A stretch of DNA of 51,041 nt, from contig JBAXRR010000001.1 in assembly GCA_037131125.1 (NCBI GenBank), positions 73,345 to 124,385 on the forward strand, read 5' to 3'. Shown here piece after piece: positions 22,147-50,870 of the stretch; position 1 is the first letter of the stretch; each line of letters starts with the position of its first letter. Both the position numbers and the translations under genes were made by a program. This DNA comes from a bacterium (GTDB lineage: Bacteria > Patescibacteriota > Dojkabacteria > GCA-016699595 > JBAXKR01). The notes beneath the pieces are model-generated. The model saw only the letters and a list, made by a program, of their open reading frames with translations, did no database searches and had not been told where the DNA came from.

Positions 22147-22155
22147 TTATTCTAA

Positions 22156-29161: not shown

Positions 29162-29176
29162 GTGTATATAATTAAA

Positions 29177-30571: not shown

Positions 30572-30598
30572 GGGCAATATCTAATTTGTATAAATCTA

Positions 30599-30868: not shown

Positions 30869-30975
30869 ATTTATTGGGTTAATATTTGTTAGGGGTATTG
30901 TATTTATACTGAAAGTATTTTGCAAAAAATTATTGGGGAGTATAAGATTGAGAAGATAAATATTTTAATAATATT

Positions 30976-32358: not shown

Positions 32359-32381
32359 CTTTTTTATGTAAGTAAATATCA

Positions 32382-33596: not shown

Positions 33597-34592
33597 CTAA
33601 TATCCATATATTATTCTAGATGGACTTACTATTGGAAGTAACACTTCGTTTAATGAAGATTTATCACTTAGGATTACAAATGGTATTAAATAGTTATCCT
33701 TAGAGGGAAGATAAACATATTCAATATTTGTTAATAGTAAAGTCTTATCTGTCGGATAGTTAGGAAGATATATTCCATTTGTATTAATAAAGCTTTCATT
33801 AAGAACATCAGTACTTAAGTTTAAGTAATCTAGATAAGAATTAGTACTTGTAATATTGTAGTTAGAAATACTTGAAGCATTTACACTTATACTTAACAAA
33901 TCATTAGCCTTATTAAAGCTCATAGATATTATTCCAGTTCCACTATTGAATATATATGAAAAATCTTTTACTTTTGGAAATAGAGATAATGTCTGTATCT
34001 CACCATTAGTTTTATCTGAAACAATATATTCCCCTGCTCCAGTTTTGTTGTAGCTTTCTTTAGTTGTAAAATTAGATGAATCTAGCGTTACTCCAAATGT
34101 TTTAAGATATTCTAATCCCTTCTTAGAGTTGTTATCTGGTGTTCCAAATCCAAATACATCGGATTGTTTTACAACATTAAAGTTAATTTGTATTCCATTA
34201 CTATCTATTAATAACTTTGTGTTGTTGTCTATAGAGTAGTCTATTACTTCTTTTGAAGTATCTAGTTTGTATTTATCTACCAATACTTTCTTAAGATTAA
34301 TAGTATCTTTAAGTTCATATTTATACATAGGTAAACTAGATGTACCAATTAATGAGTTATTAGTAATAGAGCTAGATAAAGTATATTTAAAAGGCTGAGA
34401 ATTAAACTTGGTAAGGAATACTGTATCCAAGTATTTGTTAGTTTTTACAACTTGAGTAACATCTGTTCCTGAAGAGAATATAAAGAATAAGGTGACGATA
34501 ACTCCAAAGATAATTACTAATCCAATTGCAGATAATATTAAAATTACTTTTCTATCTATTGTTTGTTTCTTTTTATTTGGTACAACTTCCAT
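33597..34592 (-). CDS. Hypothetical N-terminally anchored extracytoplasmic protein (331 aa)
   Basis: The ATG at 34592 overlaps the last 20 nt of the 1,927-aa gene, so the two are co-transcribed. TM VILILSAIGLVIIFGVIVTLFFIF. No motif recognised. Confidence 0.7.
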   Translation of the reverse strand: MEVVPNKKKQTIDRKVILILSAIGLVIIFGVIVTLFFIFSSGTDVTQVVKTNKYLDTVFLTKFNSQPFKYTLSSSITNNSLIGTSSLPMYKYELKDTINLKKVLVDKYKLDTSKEVIDYSIDNNTKLLIDSNGIQINFNVVKQSDVFGFGTPDNNSKKGLEYLKTFGVTLDSSNFTTKESYNKTGAGEYIVSDKTNGEIQTLSLFPKVKDFSYIFNSGTGIISMSFNKANDLLSISVNASSISNYNITSTNSYLDYLNLSTDVLNESFINTNGIYLPNYPTDKTLLLTNIEYVYLPSKDNYLIPFVILSDKSSLNEVLLPIVSPSRIIYGY

Positions 34593-37500
34593 TTCTTAGT
34601 GTCCACTCAGATAAAATATTCGTACAATTATATGCACTTCCTAACCCTGATTCAGAATATGAGCTACAAGATATGTGACAACAAGGTTCTCTTGGAACAT
34701 AGTTTGCAGGTCCTAATGCTTTTGGATCCAGACTCTTAATTGCGAAATGTAAATGGTTACCAGTAGAGTTTCCTGTACTTCCCACTTGTCCTATTTGATC
34801 ACCCTTCTTTACTAATTTTCCTTCTATTACATAGTCTTTAATATTTGTAAGCATGTGACCATATGTAGTTATATAGTCTACTCCATTAACAGTACTTTGT
34901 ATTTGAACATATGAGCCAAATCCATATTTAACACCACTTCTTCCTTCAATTTGTACAAGGCTTACTTTTCCATCTGCCCATGCAAATACTGGTGTACCAG
35001 CTGGAGCTGCAATATCTATTGCTCTTTCTCCTTGGTGACTGAATGCACCATTTGAACATTGGGTAACAACAACGCCTGCAGCTTTTGGATCTACTGGGTT
35101 GCCACCTAAGTCTGGACGATATAGGCCTGCTAAACTAGAAGACCTAATTAATTGCCCATCTTTATTTACACACACGTTTTGATTAATTGCTTCTGTTATA
35201 GGAACCTTTGTACCATCTTCCATTCTTGTCGCAGATGAATTTCCATTAATTAAATTACATATTCCATTTCCTCCTGCCACTTCGTTAAGATTTTTGTTTA
35301 AAAATACTCTATAAGTAAGTTTATCATTGGTGAATTTAGTGGAATCTTTTTCTGCGTGGTACTTTATTGTTTGTCCTTCCTGTCTAAAAGTGTCTGTAAT
35401 ATTATCAAAAGTAATACGGCTTACGTCACCAGTACTAGAAAGTGTATCTGTGAAATCTACAATGATGTTCCCTGTGAGATTAGCAGAATTACCTTTAGTT
35501 ATTGTTACTGTATACACTAAAGCATTTGCAGATTTGTCGTAAGAGTTGAAGGCCTTTGTGACACCAGCAATTTTTGATGCTGCTACAAATACTCCTGGAG
35601 AAAATATGGATGGAATTGCAACTAATCCAACTCCCACAATTGTTGAGGCAAATGTTAAAGACATTGATATGGACATTATTGCTTCAACTTTATCTAAAAA
35701 TCTTTCTGATCTTATAAATCTTAGTAGTCCAAGTCCTGCTCCAAGGAATTTGACAATATCTCCAAAAGACTTTGATGCCCCATCAAGTAATTTTCCTAAG
35801 TAACCTCCAACAGTCCCTCCAACAATTGTTCCAGCTGTCGCACCTGCAATGAATCCAACAATAGGTCCTGCTGCGATTGATACTACAACTCCTACTACTC
35901 CACCAACTACTGCTCCAACTAATCCAGATACGACCATAACACCTGGGGTGAACCCAAATAATAATCCTCCAAGAAGAGATCCTAAAACTGAACCTACTGC
36001 TGCAGCTGGAGCAACACCTGAGAATGATACATTTGCTGCAGTAGTGCCGGAAATTAGTCCGGTTGAAGCTAGACTTCCGACTAGGTTATCTCCTAATGCA
36101 GTTAATGTTCCTGTTAATGCACGTATACCTATAGGAAAACCTGCAATGTCTATTCCTCTCATCACTGCATCTAGTGGATTGTTAAATAGCGATCCAACTG
36201 CTTGGAATAAGTTATTACCTTTTTGCATCTCACTTATAACCTGATCAACAGTTTCCCAGATTCTATATGTTCCGTATCCTAGACCGAGGGTTTCAAATAT
36301 TGGAAACTTAACAAGTTTTGCTATAGCTCTTCCAACTGAAGAAGCTTCAATTTTTGAAGCTACTGTTTTTGCAACAGATTCTACTGCAGTGGTAACTTTT
36401 TCTATTAATCTTCTTCCGTACCACTGTGCCAAAGTATTTCCACCAATTACTGCAAATGTAAGTACTGGATTTCCTCCGGTAAGAAAGAATGTTGCTAATC
36501 CAGCAATAAATGAACTTTTTCCTACACTAAATATACTTTGTAATAACTTTGGATTAACTAATTTCGCAAGTCTACTTATTTTTCCTGCATTTCCTAGTGC
36601 TACATAAGTCGAAAACTTCCCTTTCATTATGACATTCAGCTCTCTTATTAGTCTTCCTGCACTACCCTTTAATCCAACCCAAGAATCGAATTTATCAAAT
36701 ATACTTTTGTATGCTCGCCAAAATCTACTTGTTTCAAAAATTGATCTTGATTGCGGTAATCCGTCTAATGTTGTTAATCTAAATTCTGCGGAAGTTCGAA
36801 CTGAACCAATTGAGAATTTTAAATCGGATTCTCCTGCACCTATATACATTCCAGGTGCGGGCTTGTAGTAAAGAATTTTCGTAGGATCTGCTACATCAAA
36901 TACTGGTACTACTTCTAATCCAGATAAATGATTCATCTGCTTGAAAAAGTCGTAACTTCTCCCTGCAGACAACTGTATGTAAGATTTGTATCCAGTTATT
37001 TCAATTGCTTGTCCAAATCCAGGTCTAAATGCAAATTTCTCAAGCCCCCATGAACTAGTAAGCCCTGAGGAAATAGAAGGTGGTAAATAGATTCTTTTGT
37101 CTAACAGTGTCTTAAATGATTGTGTAAGTTCAATTCCAGGGACAGTAACAAGCTTATTTAATCCTTCAACTCCAAGGAAACCTTTTAAGATTCTTTCTAA
37201 TCTATTTCCTTCTAGTAGTTCATTAACAAATGCTTCTCCACCAAATATTGTACTTCCAATTATTCCACCTACAGGTCCGGCAATTAAACCTCCAATTGCA
37301 CCACCAATTAATCCTGATTGTAAGGATCTAATACCTGCTCCTCCAAATGCTCCTCCTACTTTTGCCAATCCTTTAATTCTACTTAACCTTATTGCCATTG
37401 ATCCATCGGTTACTGTAGATAATTTTGAGAAAATAGAAGCGTAAGCTTTTGCAACTGCTGGGATCTTTTTGGCAACATCTAGTGCTCTACCAAGTATTTT

Positions 37501-40356
37501 CTTGGCCATAGTGTAAGCAAATCTTACGGTCAGAGATAAACCTAGATCGAGAATATTCTTCTTCTTTCGCCTATTCTCATATGCTAATGTTTTGTCCCAA
37601 CCGGTAAATTTTCCTACACGAGAACCGCCAACCTTATCTAATGCTTTATTTACAAGATTTCTAATACCATATGTTATTAAATTGACTTCCATTCTCTGTC
37701 CCCCTCCCATGTCGACTTTTTTTCTAAGTCCAATTGACCTTGTAAAGAGGTTGATAAGCCTACCTCTAACTCCAACCATTCTTCCTCCAGGAGTTCCATC
37801 GTTAACTTTTGGAAGTAGAATACCTTTTTCCCAAATTAATTTTCGGAGGACTTCAGGATTATTTATTATTTCTCCAATTGTATTTGCATTTTCATGTAAT
37901 TCGAAAAGTCGTTGAATGTCGTTTCCTGCAGTTCTACCTATAAGGTTTGAAATGATATCGAAAAGCATTTTCTGCTTACCATCCTCTCTTTTTTTGTCTA
38001 AGTACGGAATTAAATTTCCAGTGAAAAGTGAGGTAATCAATTGATTATCATACTCACTTAGCATTGCATCATTTGTTCTTAGGTTTACGAGTTCACCACC
38101 TTGTTCTGCATACTTCTTCTTAATATATTTGCTTGAGTCCTCTGCTTCTTCTATTTGTAACCCTACCCTCTGAAATGCTTCTGTTAATTTTTCGTTTGTT
38201 GGAAGTTCAACTAATCTTACGGTTCTCCTGATTAATTCAACGCCTTCATGAGCTTTTTCCAGTCTTGAAAGAGGTGCTTTTGTTGAATCAGGTACAGTAG
38301 AAGTATATTGTCCTTCTCTTACAACTTTTCTTCCATATGGGAGTTTTGCAAGTGTAACCTCTGTTACTTCAAACTTTGCATTATCCTTATTTGCTTCTCT
38401 ATCTTTATCGTCTAATACCTTAACCTCTATAAAACTTTCTGGAGTTGCCATGTCTGCTCTACACTCAAGAACGCCTGCAACAGTTTCCGAAGTCTGATTT
38501 GCCAAAGTGTCAATAATAGTGTCTTGCTCAGCAGGTGACATCCCTCTTCTTTCTAAGTCAGTAAAAAAGTCATTACTGTGAGTTCGTACAATTGTTTTTA
38601 CTTGAGCTGCTACTGTTGCCCCAATTACAGAGCTTGGGTCCTTACCTCTTGAGGTTAAATATTTAATCAAACCTGATCTTGCATCTAATAAAGAAGTGTC
38701 TGTATTGCTAGCTACAGTATCAAAATAAGTTGCTGCATCTTCTGCAACTGTTTTGACAACCTCTCTCGAAATAAGCTCAGCAAAAGTTATTTCAATATTT
38801 GGATTTTGTGGATCCTTCAACTTCTGTTTTGCAAGTTTCCAACCGATTGAAGCACTACTTAATATTTCATTTGATACTTCCTGGGATAACCTATATCCAA
38901 TTTCATGAGCATAAAGCTTTTTTCTTAACCTTCCTTCGATTCTGTCTTTTAAAACTGGATTAGCAATAATTTTTTCTGTGTCTGTGAAACCAATTGCGTC
39001 TGCTGCACCTTCATCTTTAACTATTTCACTAAAGTAAGGAATTAATGGAGAATCCTGTGTTCCTTCTAAAGCACTTTTCTCCATAACCATTACACTAGCG
39101 CCTCTTGTATTTTCCCAGTAATCTTCATATGCTCTTTTTCTTGCAGCTTTGGCTACAATTGGTACAAGTGGGTCACTATTGTTTAATTGAGATTTTTCAA
39201 AGGCTTTTGTTAGTGATGCGTAATTCCCTTTTCTAATTAACTCAGAGAATTCATAAAAGTACGCTCGAAATTCTGTTGAATATCTAGGGTCTTTTTCTAC
39301 TTGATCATAAATTGTTCGCCAGCTTGTGCCAGTAGTTCCTTTTACTGCTTCTTTTGCAACAAATTCAATTGCTTTCTTCCCAAGTTTATTTTCTACTAAA
39401 TTCTCTTTAACAACAGAATCATCTATTTCTTTTTGAAGTGAGGCAATTCCAGTTAATGGGAGATTCTCAGGTTGTACATGAAAACTATCTTCGAAATTCC
39501 TAATAATATCTACAAGCTGTTTATTTGAAAGCTCAGTTTTCCCAGTGACAAATCTCTGATTAGTTAGTAATCTATTATCTACACTAGTTCTTGCAACTAG
39601 CATTTCCATCAATTGTCTTTTTAGAGTAACATTATTGGTTTTGTTGACTGCAATGGAGATTTCTTCTATTGAGGAAGAAGGTTTTAACTTTCCAAGCTTT
39701 ATAGATTCATCTCTATTGAACTTATCTATTATTGCTTGTCTTTTAAGCTCTGCAGTTTCTAATTGCTTTTTGGCAATATCTATTAATGCTGCATATGAAT
39801 CAACTTTCTTTTTAACAATATCTTTTAATTCCTTTGAAGGAGTTATTCCAGAAACAAGTCCTTTGGTATTCTTCACCTCAATTCCAGATAGTACTGTTCT
39901 GATGTCTTTAACAGATTTTTCAAAATTGGGAATTGCAGGATATACTTTACTTGTAATTTCAGCTTTTGCCGTACCAAGTTTTGCTAAATAATCAGAAATA
40001 GGAACACCATCTAGTAAATTTCCTGGATATTGGGAACTTAGAAATTTTTCTGCTCCATCTAGAACCGAGTTAATTAAAAACATTTTTGATCGAATGTCAG
40101 TTCCTGCATCAAGTCTCAAGAATTCAGACGCACTTTTAGGATCTTGAAATGCTTCTTTTAATGCATTATAAGTATTTGTGTTAATTACATTTGCATTTTT
40201 CAGATGTTCGATCATCTGAGGTGTATAAAAAACTCTTGAAGAATTTGCAAAATCCTTGAGTCGAAGATTAATATCGCTAGAACTGATACCATAATTAAGA
40301 GATGCTTTGACAAACTGTTTTGTGATATAATCTTTCAAGAATTCTTTTTGGACCAT
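34573..40356 (-). CDS. Giant (1,927 aa) membrane protein: about 980-aa soluble helical N-domain, Gly/Ala-rich multi-TM region, C-terminal M23 (LytM-type) peptidase domain
   Basis: No signal peptide (MVQKEFLKDYITKQ...). The hydrophobic Gly-rich segments include GAFGGAGIRSLQSGLIGGAIGGLIAGPVGGIIGSTIFGG and LGGLLFGFTPGVMVVSGLVGAVVGGVVGVVVSIAAGPIVGFIAGATAGTIVGG. M23 signatures are AIDIAAPAGTPVFAWADGKV, TTYGHM and GSTGNSTGNHLHFAIKS (about 34700..35060). Confidence 0.9.
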   Translation of the reverse strand: MVQKEFLKDYITKQFVKASLNYGISSSDINLRLKDFANSSRVFYTPQMIEHLKNANVINTNTYNALKEAFQDPKSASEFLRLDAGTDIRSKMFLINSVLDGAEKFLSSQYPGNLLDGVPISDYLAKLGTAKAEITSKVYPAIPNFEKSVKDIRTVLSGIEVKNTKGLVSGITPSKELKDIVKKKVDSYAALIDIAKKQLETAELKRQAIIDKFNRDESIKLGKLKPSSSIEEISIAVNKTNNVTLKRQLMEMLVARTSVDNRLLTNQRFVTGKTELSNKQLVDIIRNFEDSFHVQPENLPLTGIASLQKEIDDSVVKENLVENKLGKKAIEFVAKEAVKGTTGTSWRTIYDQVEKDPRYSTEFRAYFYEFSELIRKGNYASLTKAFEKSQLNNSDPLVPIVAKAARKRAYEDYWENTRGASVMVMEKSALEGTQDSPLIPYFSEIVKDEGAADAIGFTDTEKIIANPVLKDRIEGRLRKKLYAHEIGYRLSQEVSNEILSSASIGWKLAKQKLKDPQNPNIEITFAELISREVVKTVAEDAATYFDTVASNTDTSLLDARSGLIKYLTSRGKDPSSVIGATVAAQVKTIVRTHSNDFFTDLERRGMSPAEQDTIIDTLANQTSETVAGVLECRADMATPESFIEVKVLDDKDREANKDNAKFEVTEVTLAKLPYGRKVVREGQYTSTVPDSTKAPLSRLEKAHEGVELIRRTVRLVELPTNEKLTEAFQRVGLQIEEAEDSSKYIKKKYAEQGGELVNLRTNDAMLSEYDNQLITSLFTGNLIPYLDKKREDGKQKMLFDIISNLIGRTAGNDIQRLFELHENANTIGEIINNPEVLRKLIWEKGILLPKVNDGTPGGRMVGVRGRLINLFTRSIGLRKKVDMGGGQRMEVNLITYGIRNLVNKALDKVGGSRVGKFTGWDKTLAYENRRKKKNILDLGLSLTVRFAYTMAKKILGRALDVAKKIPAVAKAYASIFSKLSTVTDGSMAIRLSRIKGLAKVGGAFGGAGIRSLQSGLIGGAIGGLIAGPVGGIIGSTIFGGEAFVNELLEGNRLERILKGFLGVEGLNKLVTVPGIELTQSFKTLLDKRIYLPPSISSGLTSSWGLEKFAFRPGFGQAIEITGYKSYIQLSAGRSYDFFKQMNHLSGLEVVPVFDVADPTKILYYKPAPGMYIGAGESDLKFSIGSVRTSAEFRLTTLDGLPQSRSIFETSRFWRAYKSIFDKFDSWVGLKGSAGRLIRELNVIMKGKFSTYVALGNAGKISRLAKLVNPKLLQSIFSVGKSSFIAGLATFFLTGGNPVLTFAVIGGNTLAQWYGRRLIEKVTTAVESVAKTVASKIEASSVGRAIAKLVKFPIFETLGLGYGTYRIWETVDQVISEMQKGNNLFQAVGSLFNNPLDAVMRGIDIAGFPIGIRALTGTLTALGDNLVGSLASTGLISGTTAANVSFSGVAPAAAVGSVLGSLLGGLLFGFTPGVMVVSGLVGAVVGGVVGVVVSIAAGPIVGFIAGATAGTIVGGTVGGYLGKLLDGASKSFGDIVKFLGAGLGLLRFIRSERFLDKVEAIMSISMSLTFASTIVGVGLVAIPSIFSPGVFVAASKIAGVTKAFNSYDKSANALVYTVTITKGNSANLTGNIIVDFTDTLSSTGDVSRITFDNITDTFRQEGQTIKYHAEKDSTKFTNDKLTYRVFLNKNLNEVAGGNGICNLINGNSSATRMEDGTKVPITEAINQNVCVNKDGQLIRSSSLAGLYRPDLGGNPVDPKAAGVVVTQCSNGAFSHQGERAIDIAAPAGTPVFAWADGKVSLVQIEGRSGVKYGFGSYVQIQSTVNGVDYITTYGHMLTNIKDYVIEGKLVKKGDQIGQVGSTGNSTGNHLHFAIKSLDPKALGPANYVPREPCCHISCSSYSESGLGSAYNCTNILSEWTLRNGSCTK

Positions 40357-40362
40357 GGAGTT

Positions 40363-40391
40363 ATTATATAGAATTTTTTATATTAAGTTAA
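40363..40391 (-). promoter_or_regulatory. Candidate promoter giving a leaderless mRNA for the 1,927-aa gene
   Basis: On the minus strand: TTAACT (40391..40386), 17-nt spacer, consensus TATAAT (40368..40363), then 6 nt (aactcc) before the ATG at 40356. The whole divergent intergenic region is 41 nt. A plus-strand TATATT (40379..40384) lies 13 nt before the ATG at 40398. Confidence 0.4.
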
Positions 40392-40397
40392 ATTAAT

Positions 40398-43300
40398 ATG
40401 TCAGAAATAATAGCACCTAGAGAGCATAGTATACCGGGGAATTCTGAAGCTGTTTCGGAGAACCCAGTATTAAAGACATTTAGACTTAATAGAGAAACAA
40501 AACCTGAGGAGGCAAAAGCTCCAGAGATTGTTCAAGAGGATTCAATAAATGAAAATTATGTAGCAAGTACGGAAACTGATTACCACGCAAAACTTGCGCA
40601 AAGTCATGAGTTACAATTATACTACGAAGCAATCCAATCTGAAGATCCTAACTTACAAGTTAGGCCTGATCAAATTCAACATATTTTTAAATTTTTCTAT
40701 GATCAACTACTCTTTTCCGGAAATGCAGAAGTTAAGAAGCTTGCAGCCTGTGATTTAGAGATTTTTATTTCCTCCTGTAGGTTAGAATTAATTAAATCCT
40801 TGCAAAAGGATGCAAAGGGAGAGTACTCATTTACGGAGCTAGTCAAGACAAAAGGTGGGCAGGATAAGCTTATGAAGCTTATGTTGACTCAAGGATTAAT
40901 TGCAGAAATCTATAATAATAAAAAATGGGGGCCGGAGAGAGTTGTTTTTACTGGACAGAATAAAAAAACGAATGTTTCATGGGCAAGTATTTATGGTGAT
41001 TATAAGAAACAATACGATTTCAGTAACGATGCTCCTTCTAAAAGTACTAGAAGATTCAGGGATATAGTTGAAAATCCAAATAAAAGTGATATTACCCTTT
41101 CTGAAAAGCTAGCCTTTTTGTACATGTTAAGGTCTCAGAGTTCTGAATTTATAGCAGAAAGTGTATTACATTCGACAGAAAATATACGTTTTACAGGCAA
41201 TGTTCAGGAAAAGCTGAGAGGTCCAATTAAGCTTATGGATCTTCAGATAACCGATATTGAAAGAATTGCATTTCAAAGTTTTTTAACTAAACCTATTGAA
41301 AATGTTGCATTACATTCTAAAACACCCGCAGAAAGAGCAGCTTCAGAAGTTATCGAAGTTTATACTGTTGATAATGGGAAAGTTGAATGTAAAGGTGATA
41401 AGACTGATCAAGTTCTAGGTAATGCTGAAAATTATTTTACTGAGGGAAGTATGCAGGATTTTGCAAAAGCCTCTGAGTATCTTGTATATCATGCAGAAAA
41501 TGGACATGTTTCGGAAAGTGAAGTGACCTCCTTTAAATGGAAGATTATCGACAGAAAAACTTTTATGGCTTGGATGAATCTTTATACAAACACAAGGAAA
41601 GATGATTACCAAATATTGCCTTTTTCTGTTGTATTATCTGGAACTTATATAGATAGTGAAGGAAATATTTTAAGTGAGTTAGCTCCTAGAAGTAATGAAA
41701 ATCGAACTGATAGGAATGAAAATCACCTTTATGAGATTGCCTATACACGAATGAAGTACGATTGTCCTGAAGCTTTGACTTACTACGAAAGGCCGTTGGA
41801 TACGCCGGATGGCTATAACAAGAGACATTATAGAGTTCAGGAAAGTTATACAAAAGATCAAGAGGGTGGAGATAGAGAAGGTGTAAGAGCTCTTGCAGCT
41901 GCAATGCTTAAACAGCATATGAGGCTTGTTTTTGGCTCTATCGCAAGTGATTATGATTTTAGTAAAAGCAATAGTCCGGAAATGACTTTTGTTAAAAGAT
42001 CATTAGGAATAAGAATTGCGGAAAAAATGGTTACTGTTGGCGATGTCAAGGTTCGTGAGGCTCCGGCTGCATTCGACCAAATTTCTAAATTACCTACAGG
42101 CTTTAGCGATAAAATACGTGTAAATATGCATTTGGGAGCATACCTCTTTGGTTTATTTTCCAAAAAGGGGGAAGATCCGATGCTTCTAAACTACATTCCA
42201 TATAGAGACTCCCCAATATTTGTAAGAAAAGTTAGAGATGCTGTGAAGGATATAAATAAACCTGTTATGACTTTAGATGGAACAAAAGTAATTTCAAAAG
42301 ATTCTGACGATTTGAAATTAGGTGGTACCGATTTGAAAAATATTCTTGAGGATGCTCATCAGAGGTATCCTGGTGTTACTCCTAAACTTACGGCACTTGA
42401 ACCCGGTTTAAAAAAGATGATGAACGGGTTTATTCTATTTGGAAAGTACTATGACAATGGTGGGGAATTTCAAAATAACGCTTCTTCTGAAAAATCTAAT
42501 AAATTATATATGGATATGCTTTTGAGGGAGTACACAACTGATTTATCAGTACTCTTAGGGTATCCAAATATTAAGGATCGTTACAGTAAACCACTTGAAA
42601 GTATCCCATTCAGAAAAGATATTTGGGAAGGGTTTATAGGCACGTTGTTAACATTGTATGTAGGAAATCAAAAAGGTTTTATTAATACCCTTTGGGCCCC
42701 AGTAATTAAATATGGACATAGTGTATTGGAGAACACTGCTTCAGACGTTTATCAAGCAAAAGATCCTAAAAAGGAAAGCTACCTTGAGCTTCTAACTAAG
42801 GTTGCTAAAGAAATTAACGATAACTCGGGATTAAAAATGTATCTAGAGGTTATCAATGATTTACCTTTGGATCTTTTTAAGAATCTTATAAAGGAATCAG
42901 GAACAGATAATAGTCTTTTGATTGCAGGAGTTTTTAGATTACTAAAGGCAAGATTTGAACAACCCAACTTTAAAGTAAAAGTAGATTCTACGAAAGGTAA
43001 TGGTCGTAGGGAAGTAGTAATGAGTGGTTTAGATTATTGGGGTACAGTAAATAATTCTGATTTCCCGGATGTTGGAGTCCTTGAGGGAACATTAGCAGTT
43101 TTGAAAAATAGTGGAATAAGATTTAATTTAGAACCTATTATTGGTGAAGGGGGAAGAGTTAGGAAGTTGAGGTTGGCCATACAACCTCTTTATGAGCAGG
43201 ATATGAAGAGTGCTGATGGAATAAATTATACTAGTGATGAGAGTTTGGATGAAATAAGAAGAAGAATAAGTACTGTTTCGGATTCTATGGGTACAAATGT

Positions 43301-43874: not shown

Positions 43875-43934
43875 AATTTTAAAGCAGGTGAGGTACAGGC
43901 TGAATTTACGAGATTATGGGAATCTATCTGGAAA

Positions 43935-45218
43935 GTGGCAAATTTAAATACTCAGCTAGGACCCAATGGAGTCAAATTTTCTGGAATGGATAAATTACTA
44001 AGTGAATTCCCAAGTTTGTTCTATAAAATTCAAAGATATGAAGCTTCTATAAATACTGAAAATGTGAATACACCTGGGAAAAGAAATGAAATTCTTGGGG
44101 TCAAAGTTCCAAGTGTAATGATGAATCCTTTTGTGCAAGTATTTGAATTGCAGAAAGGTGGAAATGCTTCTCTTGGCTCGGCATTTATAGAAGAGCCTGG
44201 AAATACATTTGCACAAATGTTTTCAATGGGAGCAGAGGGAACAATTTATAGACAAATAAAAAAACAATCTAGAGAAGACTACAGTGCGAAACATGTCTCT
44301 CAGTTAAGACTTATCTCTAGCATTATTATGGAATTAGATAAAGTTGCAGGAATACAAGCAGCTATGGCTGGAAGTACTGGCACTGCTGAAGCATTTAACG
44401 AGTTTCTTCAATTTAGATTTGGTTTCGGAGATATATGGGATTTTACTAGAGCAATTATACTTGAATCAGGGTTTAAAATTAACGATGCCTTGGAGTATAT
44501 TAGGGTTATGAAAAGCTTTTATTATAAAAATGAAGAAGGAATAGCAAAAACATATGAAGGAGCAATTGGAAGAGGTGTAACTTCAGCTATTAATCAACCT
44601 ATTGTAGAAAAGGTATATAATGCTATTCTTAAGAAGCCTGTAGCATTTCTTTCTACAGCACTGGTTCCTTTCTTGGGAAGTGAAATACAAAGACCATTTA
44701 AAAATATTCCTTTAATTGGAGGTGCAGTGTCAATTGTAGCAGTTACTGCTTTACAAGGAGGAGCTTATGTATTAGCTCCCGGGCTTTCCTTTGCCGCTCC
44801 ATCTGTAGCTACTGCTCTTATTCCTGCTGTTATAGTAGGATATGTTGTTTCAGGGGTAATTGGTCATGTCAATAGAGATATATGTATGGAATACATGATA
44901 GAAGGTGAGCATTTAAAACTATTTAAATGGGCATGGATGAAAGCTGTTAAACTAGTTGCACCTGCATTTGTTCAAAAATTGGATAAAAATAGAGAGGATA
45001 AGGAAATGATGGAAGCGCTTCAGCTTACAAAGAAGGAAAAATACATTAATTTAAATTTACTTTTCCATCCTACTTTCATAAAAGAGGTTTGGGGGCGTCT
45101 TGGTGTTAGTGAAGCAGATCTAGAGTTCATGAAGGAAATAAGAGAGAATCCAGGAGTTTTACCTGCAGCTTACGAGTATAGAGAGAACGAGGGACCACAA
45201 GAACCTAAAGAGCATTAA
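43935..45218 (+). CDS. Hypothetical membrane protein (427 aa from GTG; alternative ATG at 43986)
   Basis: Same reading frame as the preceding gene, 20 sense codons after its TAG. Central Gly/Ala-rich hydrophobic block: LSTALVPFLG...IPLIGGAVSIVAVTALQGGAYVLAPGLSFAAPSVATALIPAVIVGYVVSGVIG. The start codon is uncertain. Confidence 0.7.
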   Translation: MANLNTQLGPNGVKFSGMDKLLSEFPSLFYKIQRYEASINTENVNTPGKRNEILGVKVPSVMMNPFVQVFELQKGGNASLGSAFIEEPGNTFAQMFSMGAEGTIYRQIKKQSREDYSAKHVSQLRLISSIIMELDKVAGIQAAMAGSTGTAEAFNEFLQFRFGFGDIWDFTRAIILESGFKINDALEYIRVMKSFYYKNEEGIAKTYEGAIGRGVTSAINQPIVEKVYNAILKKPVAFLSTALVPFLGSEIQRPFKNIPLIGGAVSIVAVTALQGGAYVLAPGLSFAAPSVATALIPAVIVGYVVSGVIGHVNRDICMEYMIEGEHLKLFKWAWMKAVKLVAPAFVQKLDKNREDKEMMEALQLTKKEKYINLNLLFHPTFIKEVWGRLGVSEADLEFMKEIRENPGVLPAAYEYRENEGPQEPKEH

Positions 45219-45238
45219 TAATTAATAATTAGTTAGAT

Positions 45239-48061
45239 ATGGAAACACCATCTACAATAGATTTAGCAAAAACAACTCTTATTGTTAAGGCTGTTACTGT
45301 TGAAAATGTCTCAGATCCTGCACATTTCTTAAGATATGGCAGAAGGAAATTGAAATCTGATACACAAAATATTGTTGCAACACAGCAAACAAATCCTTTG
45401 GATATTTTAGCAAGTGTTGGTGTTAAGTCCGAACATGGTGGGCATCATAATTCGGCAGAGCATCTCCATAGTATTATGGACGAAATATTTAGACTAGAGG
45501 GAAGAAGAACAGCAGATTATGGAGGTGAAATGGCAAAGTTAAGAGGATTAGCAAAAGAAAGTGAATTTCATAACAACGTGACTGAGCTGCTTAAACAGTG
45601 TTCCAAAGTCACGGGTAAAGACTATTTAAGCAAAGAAAATATTGAAGTATTAGTTAGATTTATTGAATTATCTAAAGAACCTACTAATATTGTTACTGAA
45701 AATTACATAGATGCTAAAGGAAATCGTCTATCAAGGCGTAATCTTCGTGTGTTTACTATTACAGCCTTAGCAGCTTCAGCTCTCAGGACTCCAAATAATG
45801 TGGACAAAGCGAAAGCAAATGAAGCAAGTAACCTTCTTGCACTTTTTTCTAAACCTATGGCTTCAAGAGAAAATTTCTATCCTAAATCACTATTGAATAT
45901 ATTACTGGATATGTCAAAACAGTCTTCTACGGGAATTGTGTCTAAAGAAGAAGTTGAAAAAGCAAAGAAACTTTCTGGATTGTATTCAGACCTACTTGAA
46001 TCAAGCGAAGAAGAATCCGAACATACTAAACCACTTAGAAATGTTTATGAGGCTGCCAGAAAGGTTGTTGAAGGTGTTCAAAAAATTGAAATTGGGAGAA
46101 GGCTTGCCGAACAAGAAATTGTGCTAAAAAACTTTATTGAAAGAATTGGCAAATTCAAAGATAGTTATGACGCAGTTGTAAAGGTTGCTGAACATATCAA
46201 AAACGAAATGGATTCTACAAAAAAGATATTTTCAGGAATTGACGTATACATTCTTGCACAAGACCCTTCTGCAGGAAGATCATTAGTACAATTTGTTGAA
46301 AGTGAATTGGGAAAAGATATTTCTGTGAGAGAAAAAGTAACTTCAATTAGTGGTAAGTTAAATTTACTTAAAGCTGAAGCAAGTGCATATGCTCTTGGAA
46401 AGAGGGAAACTTTACAATTAAAGAAATTGTTTGAAGATGCCGAGCAGCAAGTTCTTTTATTAGTTGAAAATAATGATCGATTAAAGGCAACAAATTCACA
46501 GATTGCAATTGCTAGGATGTTTAGTGTAAATAGGGCAATTTTAGATTTGCCAAAAGTAAGTATTACCAATCCAGGTGCTCGTGAAAAAATTTTTGAATAC
46601 TTTCGAACATTAACATTGAAGAACGAAAAGGGTTATCGTTTTTATAAACCCGAGTTTTCTTCTGTTGATTTTACATTGGATAGCTCCTCGAATTATTTTG
46701 CTGACTTAAATGCAAAAATGGCTCTTTCCAATAGTGGAAGACCATCTACTGATCCGGAAATAAATTATGTTAGAGAAATATTGTCTCTATACGAAGAAAT
46801 GGCATTGGATGTGAAAAGTTTTAATCAAAAGGAAGTTGAAATAAAAGCAATCGAAGAAAGATTTGACTCGGAAGTTGAGATAGAAGCTAAAAGGTTAGCT
46901 GAAGAATCTCCTTTGGTTTCACAAAATCCTGCTTTGCATAATGAAGCTATTGGGGATGCACCAAAATATGGTTTAAGAAGTGATAGAGAAAACTTTAACA
47001 CTATAACTTCAGCAAGATTTAAATTCGCGAGCACATTAATACATGCAGCGGGATTGCTCAGTGCAGATGTTGTTTTGGGTTTATCATTAGGTGCTTTACC
47101 AATTCAAGGAGTTTTGCCAAATGTTTTGGCTTCTATTGGCTTAGCAGCAATACCATATGCGGGTTTTGCTGTACTTAGCCGTATTGCAGCAAATAAAGAA
47201 ATCTCAGAAGATAGTCCTGCTATGAGATCATTTAAAGAGAAGTATCCAGATCGAGTTACAGGAAGCATAACCATTTTAAATAAACCAATTGAAATTCCTA
47301 GACCTGCTTTAAATCTTGCTGTTGCCAGTGCAACTATTTTATTTCTTGGCTTTATGATTAGTACTAGAGTTTCAGAAGTAAGAGCAAAGTGGACTGTTTG
47401 TGTATCAACTATAACACCTGACGGAAGTATGACAACTGATCCGTTTAAGGCAATTTCGCAAAGATTTAGGATGTTAAACGTAAATGAGCAGGAAACTTAT
47501 GAAACTACTGCTATCAGAATTACAAAATTAGTCAACAGCACTGCGTTCTTAAATTCTCCTAATGTGGATCCTGATAAAAATATTTTTACTGAACTTGGAC
47601 CGGATCAAATTGCTGATCTCTACAGTTTGTATGGAATGGGTATTACGAATGCAGATATAAAATATACTCAAAACGGAAATGATCTTGAGCAAGTCTTTGC
47701 AAGAGTATTCGCTGCTACAGCAATAAATTTACCACTGAATAATCCTGAGGTTTCAAGCTTATCAAGAGATCAAAAAGAGATTGAAACTGCAAAAACAATT
47801 GCAGAACACATAAAGAATTTGACACCAAGTCAAAGAGCAATAGCTCATCAAGTTATCTTTGAAGCATTTTCAAGCAAGGCTAAACCTTGGTTGGATGGGA
47901 TATCAGATAAATCTCGCCCAACTGCATTAAAAAACTATACTGATGCAACAAATGCTGCAATAGATCAACTTCTTAATGATCCAAATCTTGAAACTAAGAT
48001 TTTGGATGAGCTTAATGCAATAAGGGTTGAAGGAATTAGGCCTCGATGCAATCCAAAATAA
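45239..48061 (+). CDS. Hypothetical large membrane protein (940 aa): about 620-aa soluble coiled-coil-like N-domain, TM hairpin(s), C-terminal domain
   Basis: ATG start 20 nt after the previous stop. Hydrophobic segments are STLIHAAGLLSADVVLGLSLGALPIQGVLPNVLASIGLAAIPYAGFAVL and LNLAVASATILFLGFMISTRV. No catalytic motif recognised. Confidence 0.85.
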   Translation: METPSTIDLAKTTLIVKAVTVENVSDPAHFLRYGRRKLKSDTQNIVATQQTNPLDILASVGVKSEHGGHHNSAEHLHSIMDEIFRLEGRRTADYGGEMAKLRGLAKESEFHNNVTELLKQCSKVTGKDYLSKENIEVLVRFIELSKEPTNIVTENYIDAKGNRLSRRNLRVFTITALAASALRTPNNVDKAKANEASNLLALFSKPMASRENFYPKSLLNILLDMSKQSSTGIVSKEEVEKAKKLSGLYSDLLESSEEESEHTKPLRNVYEAARKVVEGVQKIEIGRRLAEQEIVLKNFIERIGKFKDSYDAVVKVAEHIKNEMDSTKKIFSGIDVYILAQDPSAGRSLVQFVESELGKDISVREKVTSISGKLNLLKAEASAYALGKRETLQLKKLFEDAEQQVLLLVENNDRLKATNSQIAIARMFSVNRAILDLPKVSITNPGAREKIFEYFRTLTLKNEKGYRFYKPEFSSVDFTLDSSSNYFADLNAKMALSNSGRPSTDPEINYVREILSLYEEMALDVKSFNQKEVEIKAIEERFDSEVEIEAKRLAEESPLVSQNPALHNEAIGDAPKYGLRSDRENFNTITSARFKFASTLIHAAGLLSADVVLGLSLGALPIQGVLPNVLASIGLAAIPYAGFAVLSRIAANKEISEDSPAMRSFKEKYPDRVTGSITILNKPIEIPRPALNLAVASATILFLGFMISTRVSEVRAKWTVCVSTITPDGSMTTDPFKAISQRFRMLNVNEQETYETTAIRITKLVNSTAFLNSPNVDPDKNIFTELGPDQIADLYSLYGMGITNADIKYTQNGNDLEQVFARVFAATAINLPLNNPEVSSLSRDQKEIETAKTIAEHIKNLTPSQRAIAHQVIFEAFSSKAKPWLDGISDKSRPTALKNYTDATNAAIDQLLNDPNLETKILDELNAIRVEGIRPRCNPK

Positions 48062-48117
48062 CTTGCCATTATTCATAAAATGGTGCAGAATAAAGTATAG
48101 ATGTTAATTTATTTTCA

Positions 48118-49626
48118 TTGAGAAAAACCACACTTGTATTGTTTATTGCCGTTTTTTTCTTATTTGGTTTATCTACCCTTTCAACTGTTCGAGCTCAAGA
48201 AAATCTTGGATCAAATTTGTTTCAAATGTATGGAGCAAGTGGAGGTTGTACTAACGAAGCAATTCCTGCTGGTTCTTCAGTCACAGCTGTTTCCCCTATT
48301 GTTACAGAAGACAATCCCTCTAATAAAGGAATCTTTGGTGTAAGTGCATCAGGTTTGTCAAATATTATATTAGGTTGTTCATATGCAACTACAGGTACTA
48401 CGGGAGCAACTTCTAGTAGTAATTACTATGGTGGAGGAATATTAGGTTCTGTTGGTGGTTTTGCTGGATCATTTTATGCTAATCCACCAGCAAGTCTTGC
48501 ATATCAGATATCTAATACAATAACTAACATCTCCCCTGTACAAAGTGCAAACGCACAAGTTAATCTTGGTTCTTCACTTACAGGTTACGGTATCTTGCAA
48601 ATGATAGCCTCTGCTCATAGCACTGTTGTAAGTATTGTTTATGTTTTCTATATTTTTATATTTGCAGTTATTGCTTTTGCAATAATGTTTAGAGCAAAAC
48701 TTGGGGGACAACAATATGTAACAATAGTTAATGCAATTCCAAGAATAATAGTTTCATTAATATTAGTTGTTTTTAGTTATTCAATTGCAGGATTAATAAT
48801 AGATGTATCTAATATTGGGTTAAATGTTGTTTATAATATTTTTGTAAATAGTGTAGATATTAACGTTGGAACTGTTAAAGCCCCAATTATGAAAAAAGCT
48901 AGTGATGCATTTAAAACAGATCCTACTTTCTTAAGTCAACTGGGACCATTTAGTAATAAGATGAGTGTATTTCAAATATTTGGTTTTTCACAAGCAACTG
49001 TTTTCGACAGCCAAAATGGTGTAGGTGTAAATTTTGTCCCAATTAACTTTGGAGCAGGAGATGCAAATAGAATTGTAGATTCAATAACCAATACTATTAT
49101 GACGGTTGCTAGTGTTTCAGTTAATGGGGCAACAGGTGCAAATGCATTTCTTGTATTGCTTCTTGCTGTAGCGGCAATTACTTCGATGTTTAAACTGTTT
49201 TTTGCATTATTGAAAGATTTTATTACGTTAATCTTCTATCCGATTCTTGCGCCAATACAGTTTGCTCTCGTAGCAATTCCTGGACAGGAAAAAAGTGCCT
49301 TCAATTGGTTTAAGACAATGTTAGGTTCCTCTTTAAGTTTTGTGGCAGTTTATGCGGTGTTTGTTCTTATAGTGTACTTGGGACATGGATTCTTAAGTAC
49401 AAGTGCAAATCAATGGGTACCACCTTTATTGGGTTTTAGCTCAACCCCATCTATTTCTTTTATATCTTCACTTGCAGCATATGGTCTATTTATTATTTCC
49501 CCTGGAGTTCCAGATATGGTAAAAGGAATGTTAAATATTGATGCTTCAGTTAATAAATTTGGATCACAAATTGCAGAAACAACTAGAAAGGCTGCAAGTA
49601 CAGTTACATTTGGTCTTATTAAATGA
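48118..49626 (+). CDS. Polytopic membrane protein with cleavable-looking signal peptide (VirB6/TrbL-like topology; assignment tentative)
   Basis: TTG is the first possible start after an in-frame TAA at 48091, and the product begins directly with a signal peptide (MRKTTLVLFIAVFFLFGLSTLSTVRAQE). A Gly/Ser-rich ectodomain of about 130 aa is followed by about six TM helices, with a large loop between TM2 and TM3. Confidence 0.8.
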   Translation: MRKTTLVLFIAVFFLFGLSTLSTVRAQENLGSNLFQMYGASGGCTNEAIPAGSSVTAVSPIVTEDNPSNKGIFGVSASGLSNIILGCSYATTGTTGATSSSNYYGGGILGSVGGFAGSFYANPPASLAYQISNTITNISPVQSANAQVNLGSSLTGYGILQMIASAHSTVVSIVYVFYIFIFAVIAFAIMFRAKLGGQQYVTIVNAIPRIIVSLILVVFSYSIAGLIIDVSNIGLNVVYNIFVNSVDINVGTVKAPIMKKASDAFKTDPTFLSQLGPFSNKMSVFQIFGFSQATVFDSQNGVGVNFVPINFGAGDANRIVDSITNTIMTVASVSVNGATGANAFLVLLLAVAAITSMFKLFFALLKDFITLIFYPILAPIQFALVAIPGQEKSAFNWFKTMLGSSLSFVAVYAVFVLIVYLGHGFLSTSANQWVPPLLGFSSTPSISFISSLAAYGLFIISPGVPDMVKGMLNIDASVNKFGSQIAETTRKAASTVTFGLIK

Positions 49627-50852
49627 AAAAGTATATATTTTTTGTAACAACATTTTTCCTTATAGTGTTATTCTTTCCAATAACAGTTAAAGCTGTTGAT
49701 GCACCGCTGGAATGTCCAAGAGTTGGATATGATTATAGTAATCCTAAATCCGACTATACCAAGTTTGGAGATTATACTTGTTGTAAAACTCCTGAAGCAA
49801 TTTGTAAGGATCATATAGCTGACTATAAAAAGCTTCCTATAACTGCTGGAATGACGGATGATGATATTGTTGGATATTGTGTCAGTACTCCTTTAAAGCT
49901 TGATATCTCTTCAACTATTACAAGTGTAAAAGATAACTCGTTTTTGGGTGGATTAGGAGGTTCTTGTGTCTATAATGATAATACTAATCACTTTACTTAC
50001 CGTGATGATATAAAAGCAACAACGCCTGGTGGTGTAATACCATCAACAGCTAATGCAGTTTTAATTTGCGGGAAAGATGGAATGAAAGTTGGATGCGGAA
50101 AATATATTGACGTAAATGGAGCTAATGGTATCAGAGATTCACTTATTGATAGGACTTTAGCAATTCAAACCTTGCGATGTATAGCACTTTATGATACTGA
50201 CAGTGTTCTTAGTGTAAATAATAACCATACTCCTTACTCAAAAGAATTTGCTCCATCAGGGGTAGCACTTCAAGCTTTAGATATGTGTTGCCCAGAGAAC
50301 GACAGTGGGGATACTCTCGTACTAGAGTCTAAGGTTGGACAAGGCTCGGCACCATGTCAACATTTTTATCAAAACACTGCTGTGAAAAGAACATATACCT
50401 CTACTGAATTTGTTTCTTCCTTTAAGCCGTCTGAAATATGTAAGGCTGACTCAAAAGTAAACGGAGCTCCTGATGACTCAAATATAAATAAAGCATGTTG
50501 TATATGTTTGACTGGCAGTGAAAGTTGTCCTGATCCAAAAGATGGTGACCCGAAAAGTACTAATGTTTGGACAGGTATTGGATGTATTTCTACAACTACT
50601 TCAGGTTTTGCTGTAAGTTTACTTAGAATATTGTTTGGAATTATCACATTTGTATTACTTATTAGAATTGTTCAAGCAGGTTACCTATATCAATTTGGAG
50701 AGCCAGATAAGATTAAAGAAGCATGGCAGATAATTGGATCTGTAATTATGGGAGCAGTTGTATTTACTGCAGGTATTCTTATACTTAGATTTATTGGTTT
50801 TGATGTCTTAGGTCTTGGTGACTTCTTAGGAGCACTTCCTACTTTGAAATAG
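49623..50852 (+). CDS. Cys-rich secreted protein with a C-terminal T4SS-pilin-like (TrbC/VirB2-type) two-helix membrane module
   Basis: The ATG overlaps the upstream TGA (ATGA). Signal peptide MKKYIFFVTTFFLIVLFFPITVKAVDA. The ectodomain of about 300 aa is very Cys-rich. The C-terminus is LLRILFGIITFVLLIRIVQAGYLYQFGEPDKIKEAWQIIGSVIMGAVVFTAGILILRFIG. It resembles the helix / GG-x-x-Y-x-x-S-G-G-D-x-x-K / helix pattern of CPR-type T4SS pilins as I remember it. Confidence 0.8.
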   Translation: MKKYIFFVTTFFLIVLFFPITVKAVDAPLECPRVGYDYSNPKSDYTKFGDYTCCKTPEAICKDHIADYKKLPITAGMTDDDIVGYCVSTPLKLDISSTITSVKDNSFLGGLGGSCVYNDNTNHFTYRDDIKATTPGGVIPSTANAVLICGKDGMKVGCGKYIDVNGANGIRDSLIDRTLAIQTLRCIALYDTDSVLSVNNNHTPYSKEFAPSGVALQALDMCCPENDSGDTLVLESKVGQGSAPCQHFYQNTAVKRTYTSTEFVSSFKPSEICKADSKVNGAPDDSNINKACCICLTGSESCPDPKDGDPKSTNVWTGIGCISTTTSGFAVSLLRILFGIITFVLLIRIVQAGYLYQFGEPDKIKEAWQIIGSVIMGAVVFTAGILILRFIGFDVLGLGDFLGALPTLK

Positions 50853-50863
50853 TTTAAAGTAGG
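50838..50863 (+). terminator. Weak A/T-rich hairpin spanning the operon stop codon, possible (bidirectional) terminator
   Basis: CCTACTTTgAAA-tag-TTTAAAGTAGG: 8 bp plus 3 bp with one bulge, and the loop is the TAG stop at 50850-50852. It is followed by TAGTTGTTTATTTATT. It lies between two convergent genes. Confidence 0.35.
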
Positions 50864-50870
50864 TAGTTGT

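Follow-up and report, generated by a model that had tools for sequence, protein, structure and literature searches.

A cluster of six genes at 33597-50863 of the 51,041-nt window (the stretch of contig JBAXRR010000001.1 analysed here, in whose positions all window coordinates are given) is best understood as the membrane and cell-wall module of a Patescibacterial, MPF-FATA-derived type IV secretion system (T4SS)-like apparatus, which occupies a stable chromosomal locus and is detached from the VirB3 (PrgI)/TrsD (TraC-like)/VirB4 module; a probability of about 0.6 is assigned to this reading. The locus is probably a rearranged, VirB4-detached variant of a T4SS that has already been described and not a new kind of machine. 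The argument is carried by two proteins encoded at the right end of the cluster, a VirB6-like membrane protein of 502 amino acids (aa) and a Cys-rich, pilin-like protein of 409 aa, more distant members of both families being contiguous with VirB4. The remaining genes encode a 1,927-aa protein with a Peptidase_M23 domain (the M23 giant), an anchored protein of 331 aa, and two large proteins of 1,606 and 940 aa. L-numbers below denote contigs or loci of relatives or siblings that were compared with the window.

The 502-aa protein begins with a signal-peptide-like segment, followed by an ectodomain of about 110 aa and a core of membrane helices. Its predicted fold and the gene context of its homologues both place it in a divergent VirB6-like family, as the initial annotation had suspected from its channel-like topology. 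The sequence family is small (21 clusters among 5.8 billion), and no Pfam domain was recognised in any of its clusters; its profile retrieved nothing relevant from PDB sequences, and the single sequence had no match among GTDB representatives. An AlphaFold2 (AF2) model built from a 21-sequence multiple sequence alignment reached a pLDDT of 66 overall and 80-92 in the transmembrane (TM) core. When this model was searched against the PDB with Foldseek, the top seven matches were all chains of entries for the R388 T4SS stalk or inner membrane complex (7O3V, 8RT9, 8RTD), with E 0.02-1.1, probability up to 0.99, TM-score on the target 0.37-0.50 and identity 11-12%. The search output gives entry titles only; judged by their lettering and lengths, these chains are taken to be TrwI/VirB6. 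Matches named TrbL/VirB6 were also obtained in the BFVD viral structure library.

Gene context is the stronger evidence for a VirB6-like identity. About 34 distinct loci with members of the 502-aa family were examined, in relatives with up to 10 kb on either side and in the source contig over the whole window. In L007 (Ca. Shapirobacteria), L040, L047, L050 and L054 the VirB6-like gene lies in a cluster with PrgI, TraC-like and VirB4 genes; in the last four the order is VirB6-like, a large minus-strand open reading frame (ORF), pilins (none in L054), PrgI, TraC-like and VirB4, and in L007 the VirB6-like gene is preceded by an array of 5-6 pilin genes and a 711-aa ORF. L012, L034 and L051 carry a partial cluster on contigs that end before VirB4. 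Most telling is L058 (JALYQM010000004.1, 3043-20793), in which genes for an 819-aa PrgI-like protein, a TraC-like protein, VirB4, a Cys-rich long pilin of 249 aa, a further pilin of 144 aa and the 502-aa VirB6-like protein form a single run, followed by two divergent giants of 1,397 and 1,451 aa with C-proximal TM segments. PrgI and TraC-like genes thus adjoin distant 502-aa homologues in L007, L012, L034, L040, L047, L050, L051, L054 and L058. In a further three loci, L033, L042 and L045, a pilin array immediately precedes the VirB6-like gene, and no PrgI, TraC-like or VirB4 gene is present in the DNA examined. L045 is itself an extreme case of the Patescibacterial pilin arrays: at 2-4100, about nine tandem PF18895-type pilin ORFs precede a gene for a 1,099-aa protein containing 49 Cys, after which comes the VirB6-like gene. 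VirB6 homologues have been reported as "scarce or absent" in two large Patescibacterial classes and as "scarce" by hidden Markov model (HMM) in Microgenomatia (PMC12102498), and the 502-aa family may fill a gap in well-represented classes where VirB6 HMMs find few or no homologues.

The 409-aa protein, with 18 Cys in all, combines a signal peptide with a Cys-rich ectodomain of about 290 aa; judged from profile comparison, it carries a VirB2/T4SS_pilin-type two-helix hairpin (about aa 320-395) behind that ectodomain. Members of its family conserve the C-terminal 90 residues and many Cys, and vary in length from 409 aa in the window to 372 (L011), 473 (L015), 261 (the ELA406 genome), 406 (L057) and 249 aa (L058). 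Alignment of the family with a PF18895 pilin array by hhalign gave a probability of 91% (E 1e-6 over 70 columns), and a pilin HMM recovered the 409-aa protein at E 1.6e-4 and no further pilin in the window; sequence and profile searches of the PDB gave no match. The homologue in ELA406 scored 20 bits (E 7e-4) against PF18895, and the 249-aa homologue in L058, which has 14 Cys, sits between VirB4 and the VirB6-like gene, and is related to the 409-aa protein at 9e-10 by BLASTP and 2e-12 by phmmer, passes the family cutoff (34.6 versus 26.6 bits). The Cys-rich secreted protein with a T4SS-pilin-like C-terminus that had been described from the sequence is therefore recovered by hhalign, by HMM and through the L058 homologue, and its place in the T4SS_pilin family would follow by transitive homology only. 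Genes for VKOR, a disulfide-bond formation protein, directly adjoin the pilin-like/VirB6-like pair in L011 (4624-5094) and L060 (275-727), which is consistent with a disulfide-bonded ectodomain of the long pilin.

All seven ORFs previously listed for the cluster were recovered with unchanged positions and lengths, as were the back-to-back arms with a 41-bp region between their start codons and the ATGA overlap that joins the 502-aa and 409-aa genes (Table 1). The gene content of the right arm had to be revised. The initial annotation had counted proteins of 1,158, 427 and 940 aa with no recognisable motif; the ORFs exist and belong to no recognised family, but the three proteins are the products of two genes. 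The 1,158-aa and 427-aa ORFs lie in the same frame and are separated solely by a TAG at 43872-43874. Sibling contig L001 has TAT at this site and a single 1,606-aa gene, and is otherwise 100% identical to the window, with one difference in 11,419 bp (G->T at 43874); the five members of protein cluster P0022 have Tyr1159 at the TAG site. Since the frame is shared and the sibling and the protein cluster encode Tyr, the two ORFs are one 1,606-aa gene with a nonsense polymorphism in the window, so that the right arm has four genes (1,606, 940, 502 and 409 aa) and the seven ORFs of the cluster make six genes. A Logan contig from another sample (SRR7053532) begins two bases past the TAG site, which fits an assembly-graph break at a real polymorphism, and these observations suggest that both the TAG and the TAT allele segregate in the population. 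Recoding or read-through of TAG was considered and is ruled out, TAG being an ordinary stop in this genome (8 of 24 genes) and a sibling contig having TAT.

Table 1. Features of the divergent gene cluster, in window coordinates.
Feature	Position	Strand	Remark
331-aa ORF	33597-34592	-	ORF confirmed as annotated
1,927-aa ORF (M23 giant)	34573-40356	-	ORF confirmed as annotated
Divergent gap, 41 bp, AT-rich	40357-40397	.	Between start codons of both arms
1,158-aa ORF	40398-43874	+	N-terminal 1,158 codons of the 1,606-aa gene; TAG-ended in the window
427-aa ORF	43935-45218	+	C-terminal 427 codons of the 1,606-aa gene; same frame as the 1,158-aa ORF
940-aa ORF	45239-48061	+	Orphan
502-aa ORF, VirB6-like (predicted)	48118-49626	+	Fold and gene context of homologues
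409-aa ORF, long pilin (predicted)	49623-50852	+	VirB2/T4SS_pilin-type C-terminal hairpin

The 41-bp gap presumably holds or overlaps the promoters of both arms. It contains one sigma-70-like match on the minus strand, TTAACT-17-TATAAT (10/12), which ends 7 nt before the ATG of the 1,927-aa gene; the count of such matches in the gap is at chance level, and neither divergent gene is preceded by a Shine-Dalgarno sequence. If this sole promoter-like match were used, the transcript of the M23 giant would be leaderless. L059 keeps the divergent layout, again with a short, AT-rich gap, here of about 71 bp.

In the left arm, the M23 giant begins with about 1,000 aa of helical sequence lacking a signal peptide, which is probably cytoplasmic, and continues with a Gly-rich multi-pass membrane region (about aa 1000-1600) and a C-terminal part that is probably extracytoplasmic. 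Pfam Peptidase_M23 (PF01551) is matched at aa 1777-1875 with E 4e-21 (75.5 bits against a cutoff of 28.7), and the domain is also found with NCBIfam and PDB. A hydrophobicity scan reproduced the topology first sketched for the cluster proteins, including the signal-peptide-like N-termini of the 502-aa and 409-aa proteins. The ortholog in L059 (1,791 aa) is 29-31% identical over an alignment of 1,659 aa (E 2.5e-90). S-H1774-x6-D1781, YGH1834 and H1868-L-H1870 are invariant between the two, as are eight Cys in the C-terminal region; compared with solved M23 enzymes, the giant has Glu at the position of the canonical HxxxD His, the first zinc ligand. It is plausible that the M23 domain is active, extracytoplasmic and disulfide-stabilised, with a lengthened first motif. 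The N-terminal part has no match in the PDB by sequence or profile search, and aa 1-1750 retrieved self matches only in a word-indexed homology search. The 1,606-aa protein gave the same outcome; both results reflect a sensitivity limit of that search, as orthologs of 21-29% identity were found through synteny in L057 and L059.

The M23 giant may be a cell-wall-remodelling component in the role of VirB1, and is a putative one from its domain content; the domain is not homologous to VirB1, SLT or CHAP. It also adjoins VirB6-like genes in L039, L055 and L059. L039 encodes a 1,500-aa polytopic protein with a C-terminal M23 domain (E 4.6e-14), then a 350-aa N-anchored protein and then a VirB6-like protein, on a contig that ends in PrgI. 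In L044, L053 and L055 the VirB6-like gene is followed by an 840-860-aa membrane protein with a sub-threshold M23 match (E 2.5e-5) and by an N-anchored protein of about 346 aa; in L055 the two have 860 and 347 aa. The 331-aa protein of the window, annotated from the start as anchored and overlapping, shares 20 nt between the start of its gene and the end of the 1,927-aa gene, and has a single N-terminal TM segment (about aa 16-38) and a strand-rich, Cys-free ectodomain. It has no match in Pfam, NCBIfam or the PDB; its ortholog in L059 (304 aa, 24% identity, E 1e-10) directly follows the M23 giant as in the window. The anchored proteins of about 340-350 aa that follow M23 proteins in L039 and L044/L055 are alike in architecture only, hhalign between the approximately 340-aa proteins of different lineages having found no similarity. 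The 331-aa protein may be a partner or regulator of the M23 giant, or an analogue in the position of VirB8.

The initial annotation had proposed gene-order conservation as a check, and the cluster and its left flank proved colinear in a distant relative. On L059 of CAYSFE01, a GTDB representative that is a family-level relative (L057/L059), gene order is kept from the 1,061-aa flank gene through the 409-aa gene. CobW lies just beyond the right end of the cluster on L057 (which overlaps L059), on L011 and on sibling L003; L011 appears to be of the same lineage as L057/L059. Identity to L059 is 58% for the solute-binding protein, 49% for DUF3048, 46% for the 397-aa, 42% for the 1,061-aa and 33% for the 108-aa flank protein, and CobW is 58% identical between window sibling L003 and L011. 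Within the cluster the corresponding values are 52% for the VirB6-like protein, 35% for the long pilin (C-terminal half only), 29% for the M23 giant, 24% for the 331-aa protein and 21-23% for the 1,606-aa protein; the slot of the 940-aa protein is filled by proteins of 841-849 aa in L059/L057 that have a TM segment at a similar position and no detectable similarity. From this colinearity and identity gradient, the cluster is a vertically inherited unit, and its large, mainly cytoplasmic proteins evolve much faster than the genes beside them. Conservation of the order and orientation of the whole cluster in another genome likewise indicates that the ORFs are not chance ones.

The closest species representative is the ELA406 metagenome-assembled genome (MAG), whose arginyl-tRNA synthetase (ArgRS) and CobW are 83% and 87% identical to those of the window lineage; the other relatives are MAGs of Patescibacteria, the candidate phyla radiation (CPR), with about 40% ArgRS identity, and the source lineage is a deep-branching CPR group. 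In ELA406 (L022, JBAXKR010000006.1, 2713-12560) the pilin/VirB6-like pair next to CobW has the opposite orientation, shows only 35-41% identity and is flanked by proteins of 498 and 1,954 aa that are unrelated to any other seen, which suggests cassette replacement at a hypervariable locus. The left flank at 25976-33575 (1,061-aa Cys-rich, solute-binding, 108-aa, DUF3048 and 397-aa N-anchored proteins) is conserved beside the cluster in L059 (16320-22325) and partly kept beside the VirB6-like cluster in L008/L009 (L008, 16196-20597). The 397-aa flank protein is faintly similar to the anchored protein that follows the M23 giant in L039 (E about 6e-4, from a very small database), and might belong to the system.

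The two giants of the right arm have remained without recognisable motif, as first described, neither the 1,606-aa nor the 940-aa protein having a match in Pfam, PHROGs, NCBIfam, PADLOC or the PDB. The 1,606-aa protein has a soluble N-terminal part without a signal peptide and a C-proximal membrane hairpin (about aa 1434-1490) followed by a tail of about 115 aa; its ortholog in L057/L059 (about 1,667 aa) is colinear over 1,337 aa at E 1e-14. The 940-aa protein is all-helical, with a soluble N-terminal part of about 590 aa, two to three TM segments (about aa 600-710) and a C-terminal part of about 230 aa. An exhaustive phmmer search against 1.84 billion representatives returned only the protein itself, and a single-sequence AF2 model (pLDDT 37) was not used. 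In L057/L059 and L011 its place is taken by an 841-849-aa protein that has a TM segment at about aa 615, and to which neither BLASTP nor hhalign found similarity. Giants that lack a signal peptide and carry one or two TM segments near the C-terminus (within about 60-170 residues) adjoin VirB6-like genes in several lineages: 1,606 aa in the window, 1,668 in L057, 1,604-1,686 in L008/L009, 1,397 and 1,451 (the divergent pair) in L058, 1,494 in L041 and 2,189 in L038. The 1,954-aa giant of ELA406 resembles them, but its TM segment lies about 420 residues from the C-terminus. Between lineages hhalign detected no sequence similarity, and the giants of other lineages are likewise without a match in Pfam, PHROGs, NCBIfam, PADLOC or PDB sequences; such sequence-unrelated analogues of the window giants adjoin VirB6-like genes in at least six lineages.

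If the cluster is a T4SS-like module, the VirB6-like protein would form a membrane platform on which the co-translated long pilin, once extracted from the membrane, would be displayed, either as a pilus subunit or as a disulfide-stabilised adhesin or tip-like element. The M23 giant and its 331-aa anchored partner would open the peptidoglycan locally, and the energy source would be a VirB4 whose gene lies elsewhere in the genome. The 1,606-aa and 940-aa proteins, with their large cytoplasmic parts and C-proximal hairpins, would be lineage-specific, fast-evolving accessory subunits or substrates. Such a machine might serve epibiotic host-cell interaction and not conjugation, as proposed for other Patescibacteria. 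In the one Patescibacterial species tested the T4SS is essential for epibiotic growth, its function being described as completely unknown (PMC11665869).

The strongest competing account keeps the apparatus and changes the part of the giants: the 1,606-aa and 940-aa proteins and their analogues would be translocated substrates, effectors or host-interaction factors, with hairpins that insert into the host membrane. This would explain their extreme divergence, seen against L059 (flanks at 33-58% and the VirB6-like protein at 52%, but the 1,606-aa protein at about 21% and the 940-aa slot undetectable) and again in ELA406, where housekeeping proteins are 83-87% identical and the giants unrelated to any others. 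The combination of C-proximal hairpins with the lack of a signal peptide, and the nonsense allele segregating in the population, also agree with it, and transmembrane effectors are described as common T4SS substrates in other bacteria (PMC12981334). However, neither a secretion signal nor a known effector domain is present, the position between promoter and VirB6-like gene and the tight spacing would suit structural subunits equally well, and fast evolution is typical of Patescibacterial envelope proteins generally; the account is considered rather unlikely. A bolder proposal would make the giants with C-proximal hairpins a previously unrecognised class of Patescibacterial T4SS partners, being either translocated effectors that rewire the host envelope or the cytoplasmic platform of a VirB4-independent, T4SS-derived contact organelle made of the VirB6-like protein, the long pilin and the M23 giant. 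This proposal is speculative and is rated low.

The T4SS-like reading must also account for the energising module. The cluster proteins contain no Walker A motif, and queries with the L007 sequences found no homologue of VirB4 (E<1e-4), TraC-like or PrgI among the window ORFs, the sole P-loop proteins of the window being an ABC transporter ATPase and CTP synthase; the window proteins include no relaxase, integrase or phage families. The absence of a VirB4/VirD4-type ATPase, relaxase and integrase, remarked on at the outset, thus extends to the whole window. VirB4 has been found in 2,417 of 3,035 Patescibacterial assemblies, usually once, and is the universal signature component in every T4SS studied; in some classes the Patescibacterial T4SS genes are dispersed, with VirB3 often far from virB4 (PMC12102498). 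Because both protein families are contiguous with the VirB4 module elsewhere, in L058 above all, and because of this documented dispersal and the prevalence of VirB4, a split locus is the most economical reading.

Several observations weigh against a T4SS-like module. VirB4, PrgI and TraC-like genes are absent from the 51-kb window and from the DNA seen around L057/L059, L011, L015/16, L022 and L060, and although VirB4 is most likely encoded elsewhere, that judgement draws on the prior of about 80% and not on data from the source genome. The match to the VirB6 fold is of modest strength (E 0.02, TM-score about 0.4-0.5, pLDDT 66), and Pfam TrbL/VirB6 (PF04610) was not reached, the 502-aa protein giving no match and one of the 21 family members an E of 0.013. 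The 409-aa protein falls below the PF18895 cutoff (13.4 bits, E 0.085, versus 26.6 bits), and the first M23 motif of the giant is non-canonical (Hx6D). That the 1,606-aa, 940-aa and 331-aa proteins belong to the apparatus is suggested by conserved adjacency and recurring architecture only.

The missing ATPase had led the initial annotation to suggest a new system or an ATPase-less organelle, that is, an autonomous T4SS-derived surface or contact organelle in which the VirB6-like protein and long pilin, the M23 giant and the giant anchored proteins are self-contained. In the closest sub-clade (35-76% identity; window, L057/L059, L011, L015/16, L022, L060) the pilin/VirB6-like pair is indeed never seen with VirB4, PrgI or TraC-like genes in the DNA available, in L015/L016 the pair stands alone among housekeeping genes, and the cluster proteins are devoid of Walker A. 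Yet the contexts are short (at most 10 kb on each side except in the window), VirB4 is universal in the T4SSs studied, and in about 80% of Patescibacterial assemblies it is present and often far from other T4SS genes (PMC12102498). More distant members of both families are moreover contiguous with VirB4: the VirB6-like and long-pilin families both adjoin PrgI, TraC-like and VirB4 in L058, and the VirB6-like family does so also in L040, L047, L050, L054 and L007. The self-contained organelle is no longer the best reading, and is held to be improbable.

A still less probable explanation is that of a generic envelope or cell-wall maintenance locus, with the M23 giant as a housekeeping peptidoglycan endopeptidase and the T4SS likeness due to common helical membrane shapes. 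The locus is chromosomal and lies among housekeeping genes, the window proteins themselves do not reach the Pfam TrbL and T4SS_pilin cutoffs, and hydrophobic hairpins can give spurious profile matches. Common shapes would hardly account for a set of top seven PDB fold matches made up entirely of R388 T4SS chains (presumably VirB6), for homologues of both proteins embedded in VirB4 clusters at many loci, or for an intermediate homologue (L058) that passes PF18895; the explanation is very unlikely. A prophage or phage-tail-like remnant, with the M23 giant as tape-measure or ejection protein, is effectively refuted along with any other mobile-element origin, given that the matches to PHROG tape-measure and endolysin families and to phage internal proteins in the PDB are confined to the M23 domain (PHROG, about aa 1743-1890), that the window has no capsid, terminase, tail or integrase genes, that tblastn with the 502-aa protein was negative in 50,697 phage records, plasmids and IMG/VR, and that the cluster and left flank are syntenic in a distant relative, with CobW beyond the right end (L003, L011, L057). 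The searches thus turned up neither phage nor housekeeping homology of the large proteins outside the M23 domain, and neither a loss of synteny in relatives nor a failure of the pilin and VirB6-like assignments, any of which had been named beforehand as grounds for abandoning an envelope apparatus.

Among known systems, the nearest to the T4SS-like module of the window is the Patescibacterial T4SS, which comprises VirB4, VirB3, VirB6, VirB1-like hydrolases (some of them M23), VirB2 pilin arrays and no relaxase (PMC12102498). In Southlakia epibionticum ML1 the T4SS locus (SEML1_0006-0019) includes hydrolases and hypothetical proteins of about 1,000-1,100 aa, among them an extended VirB6-like protein (PMC10633639). 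The window agrees with these systems (PMC10633639, PMC12102498) in being chromosomal and monoderm, in lacking a relaxase, and in having PF18895/VirB2-type pilins, a divergent VirB6-like protein, a putative peptidoglycan hydrolase and large hypothetical proteins. It differs in having no VirB4, TrsD or PrgI in the locus or within 51 kb, a single long pilin with a 290-aa Cys-rich ectodomain instead of an array of pilins of about 105-185 aa, a hydrolase that is a 1,927-aa polytopic giant, additional giants of 1,606 and 940 aa that belong to no family, and an arrangement in two divergent operons. VirB2-type pilins are unusual for monoderm T4SSs, MPF-FATA systems being without pilins.

In the Prg/Pcf system of Enterococcus plasmid pCF10, PrgH is VirB6-like, PrgI is the VirB3, PrgJ the VirB4 and PrgK the hydrolase. 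The window shares with this system and with MPF-FATA systems in general the envelope logic of a monoderm and an anchored, multi-domain putative hydrolase with a polytopic VirB6-like protein; in distant relatives the VirB6-like family occurs together with homologues of PrgI and VirB4. Unlike them it has no relaxase, coupling protein or VirB4, and it does have a pilin; no sequence-level match of window proteins to PrgH or PrgK was found. The R388 TrwI/VirB6-TrwJ/VirB5 stalk (7O3V, 8RT9, 8RTD) gives the 502-aa model its best structural match, and the only one that is consistent. By analogy, the coupling of a VirB6-like gene to a secreted partner may echo the VirB6-VirB5 pairing. Identity is only 11-12%, however, the 502-aa protein additionally has an ectodomain at its N-terminus and a long loop on the outside, and its partner has a putative VirB2-type hairpin and not a VirB5 fold. 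A precedent for a functional T4SS with VirB6- and VirB2-type genes far from virB4 is found in the Rickettsiales Rvh system, whose genes are spread over several genomic islands and which is named as an exception to clustering (PMC12102498); it differs in being diderm, in homology at the family level only, and in having no M23 or tail-anchored giants.

On present evidence the locus does not define a new secretion system. What it adds is a divergent VirB6-like family, a long Cys-rich pilin genetically coupled to the VirB6-like protein, a polytopic M23 giant with an anchored partner as a recurring companion of the VirB6-like family, and giant, tail-anchored proteins that evolve very fast and may be accessory subunits or substrates.

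Outside the cluster, the window consists of unremarkable, low-GC chromosomal DNA (GC about 0.33), which also encodes ArgRS, a short alanyl-tRNA synthetase (AlaRS), CTP synthase, an aminotransferase, ABC/FtsX, the solute-binding protein, DUF3048 and a HepT/MNT pair; tRNA genes are absent from the 51 kb. Proteins of at least 900 aa occupy over half of the window's length. A giant ORF of more than 2,260 aa (1-6780, minus strand) runs off the left edge, and a 2,291-aa protein (10403-17278, minus strand) with 66 Cys, an N-terminal TM segment and fn3/purple-acid-phosphatase-N-like domains is probably a surface protein. The AlaRS (17888-19876, minus strand) has catalytic and SAD domains in 662 aa, far below the typical bacterial length, in line with CPR genome reduction. 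The HepT-like (NTase_sub_bind) and MNT-like (Polbeta/NTP_transf_2) toxin-antitoxin pair (21757-22446, minus strand) has ArgRS on one side and, on the other, a 128-aa orphan that lies upstream of CTP synthase. Practically all window genes are preceded by AT-rich DNA in which no Shine-Dalgarno sequence can be recognised. At the right edge (50853-51041), the window stops 189 bp past the 409-aa gene, inside the 3' end of the convergent CobW gene, as do L001 and L002, and L003-L005 read through; the recurrent assembly break possibly reflects strain heterogeneity.

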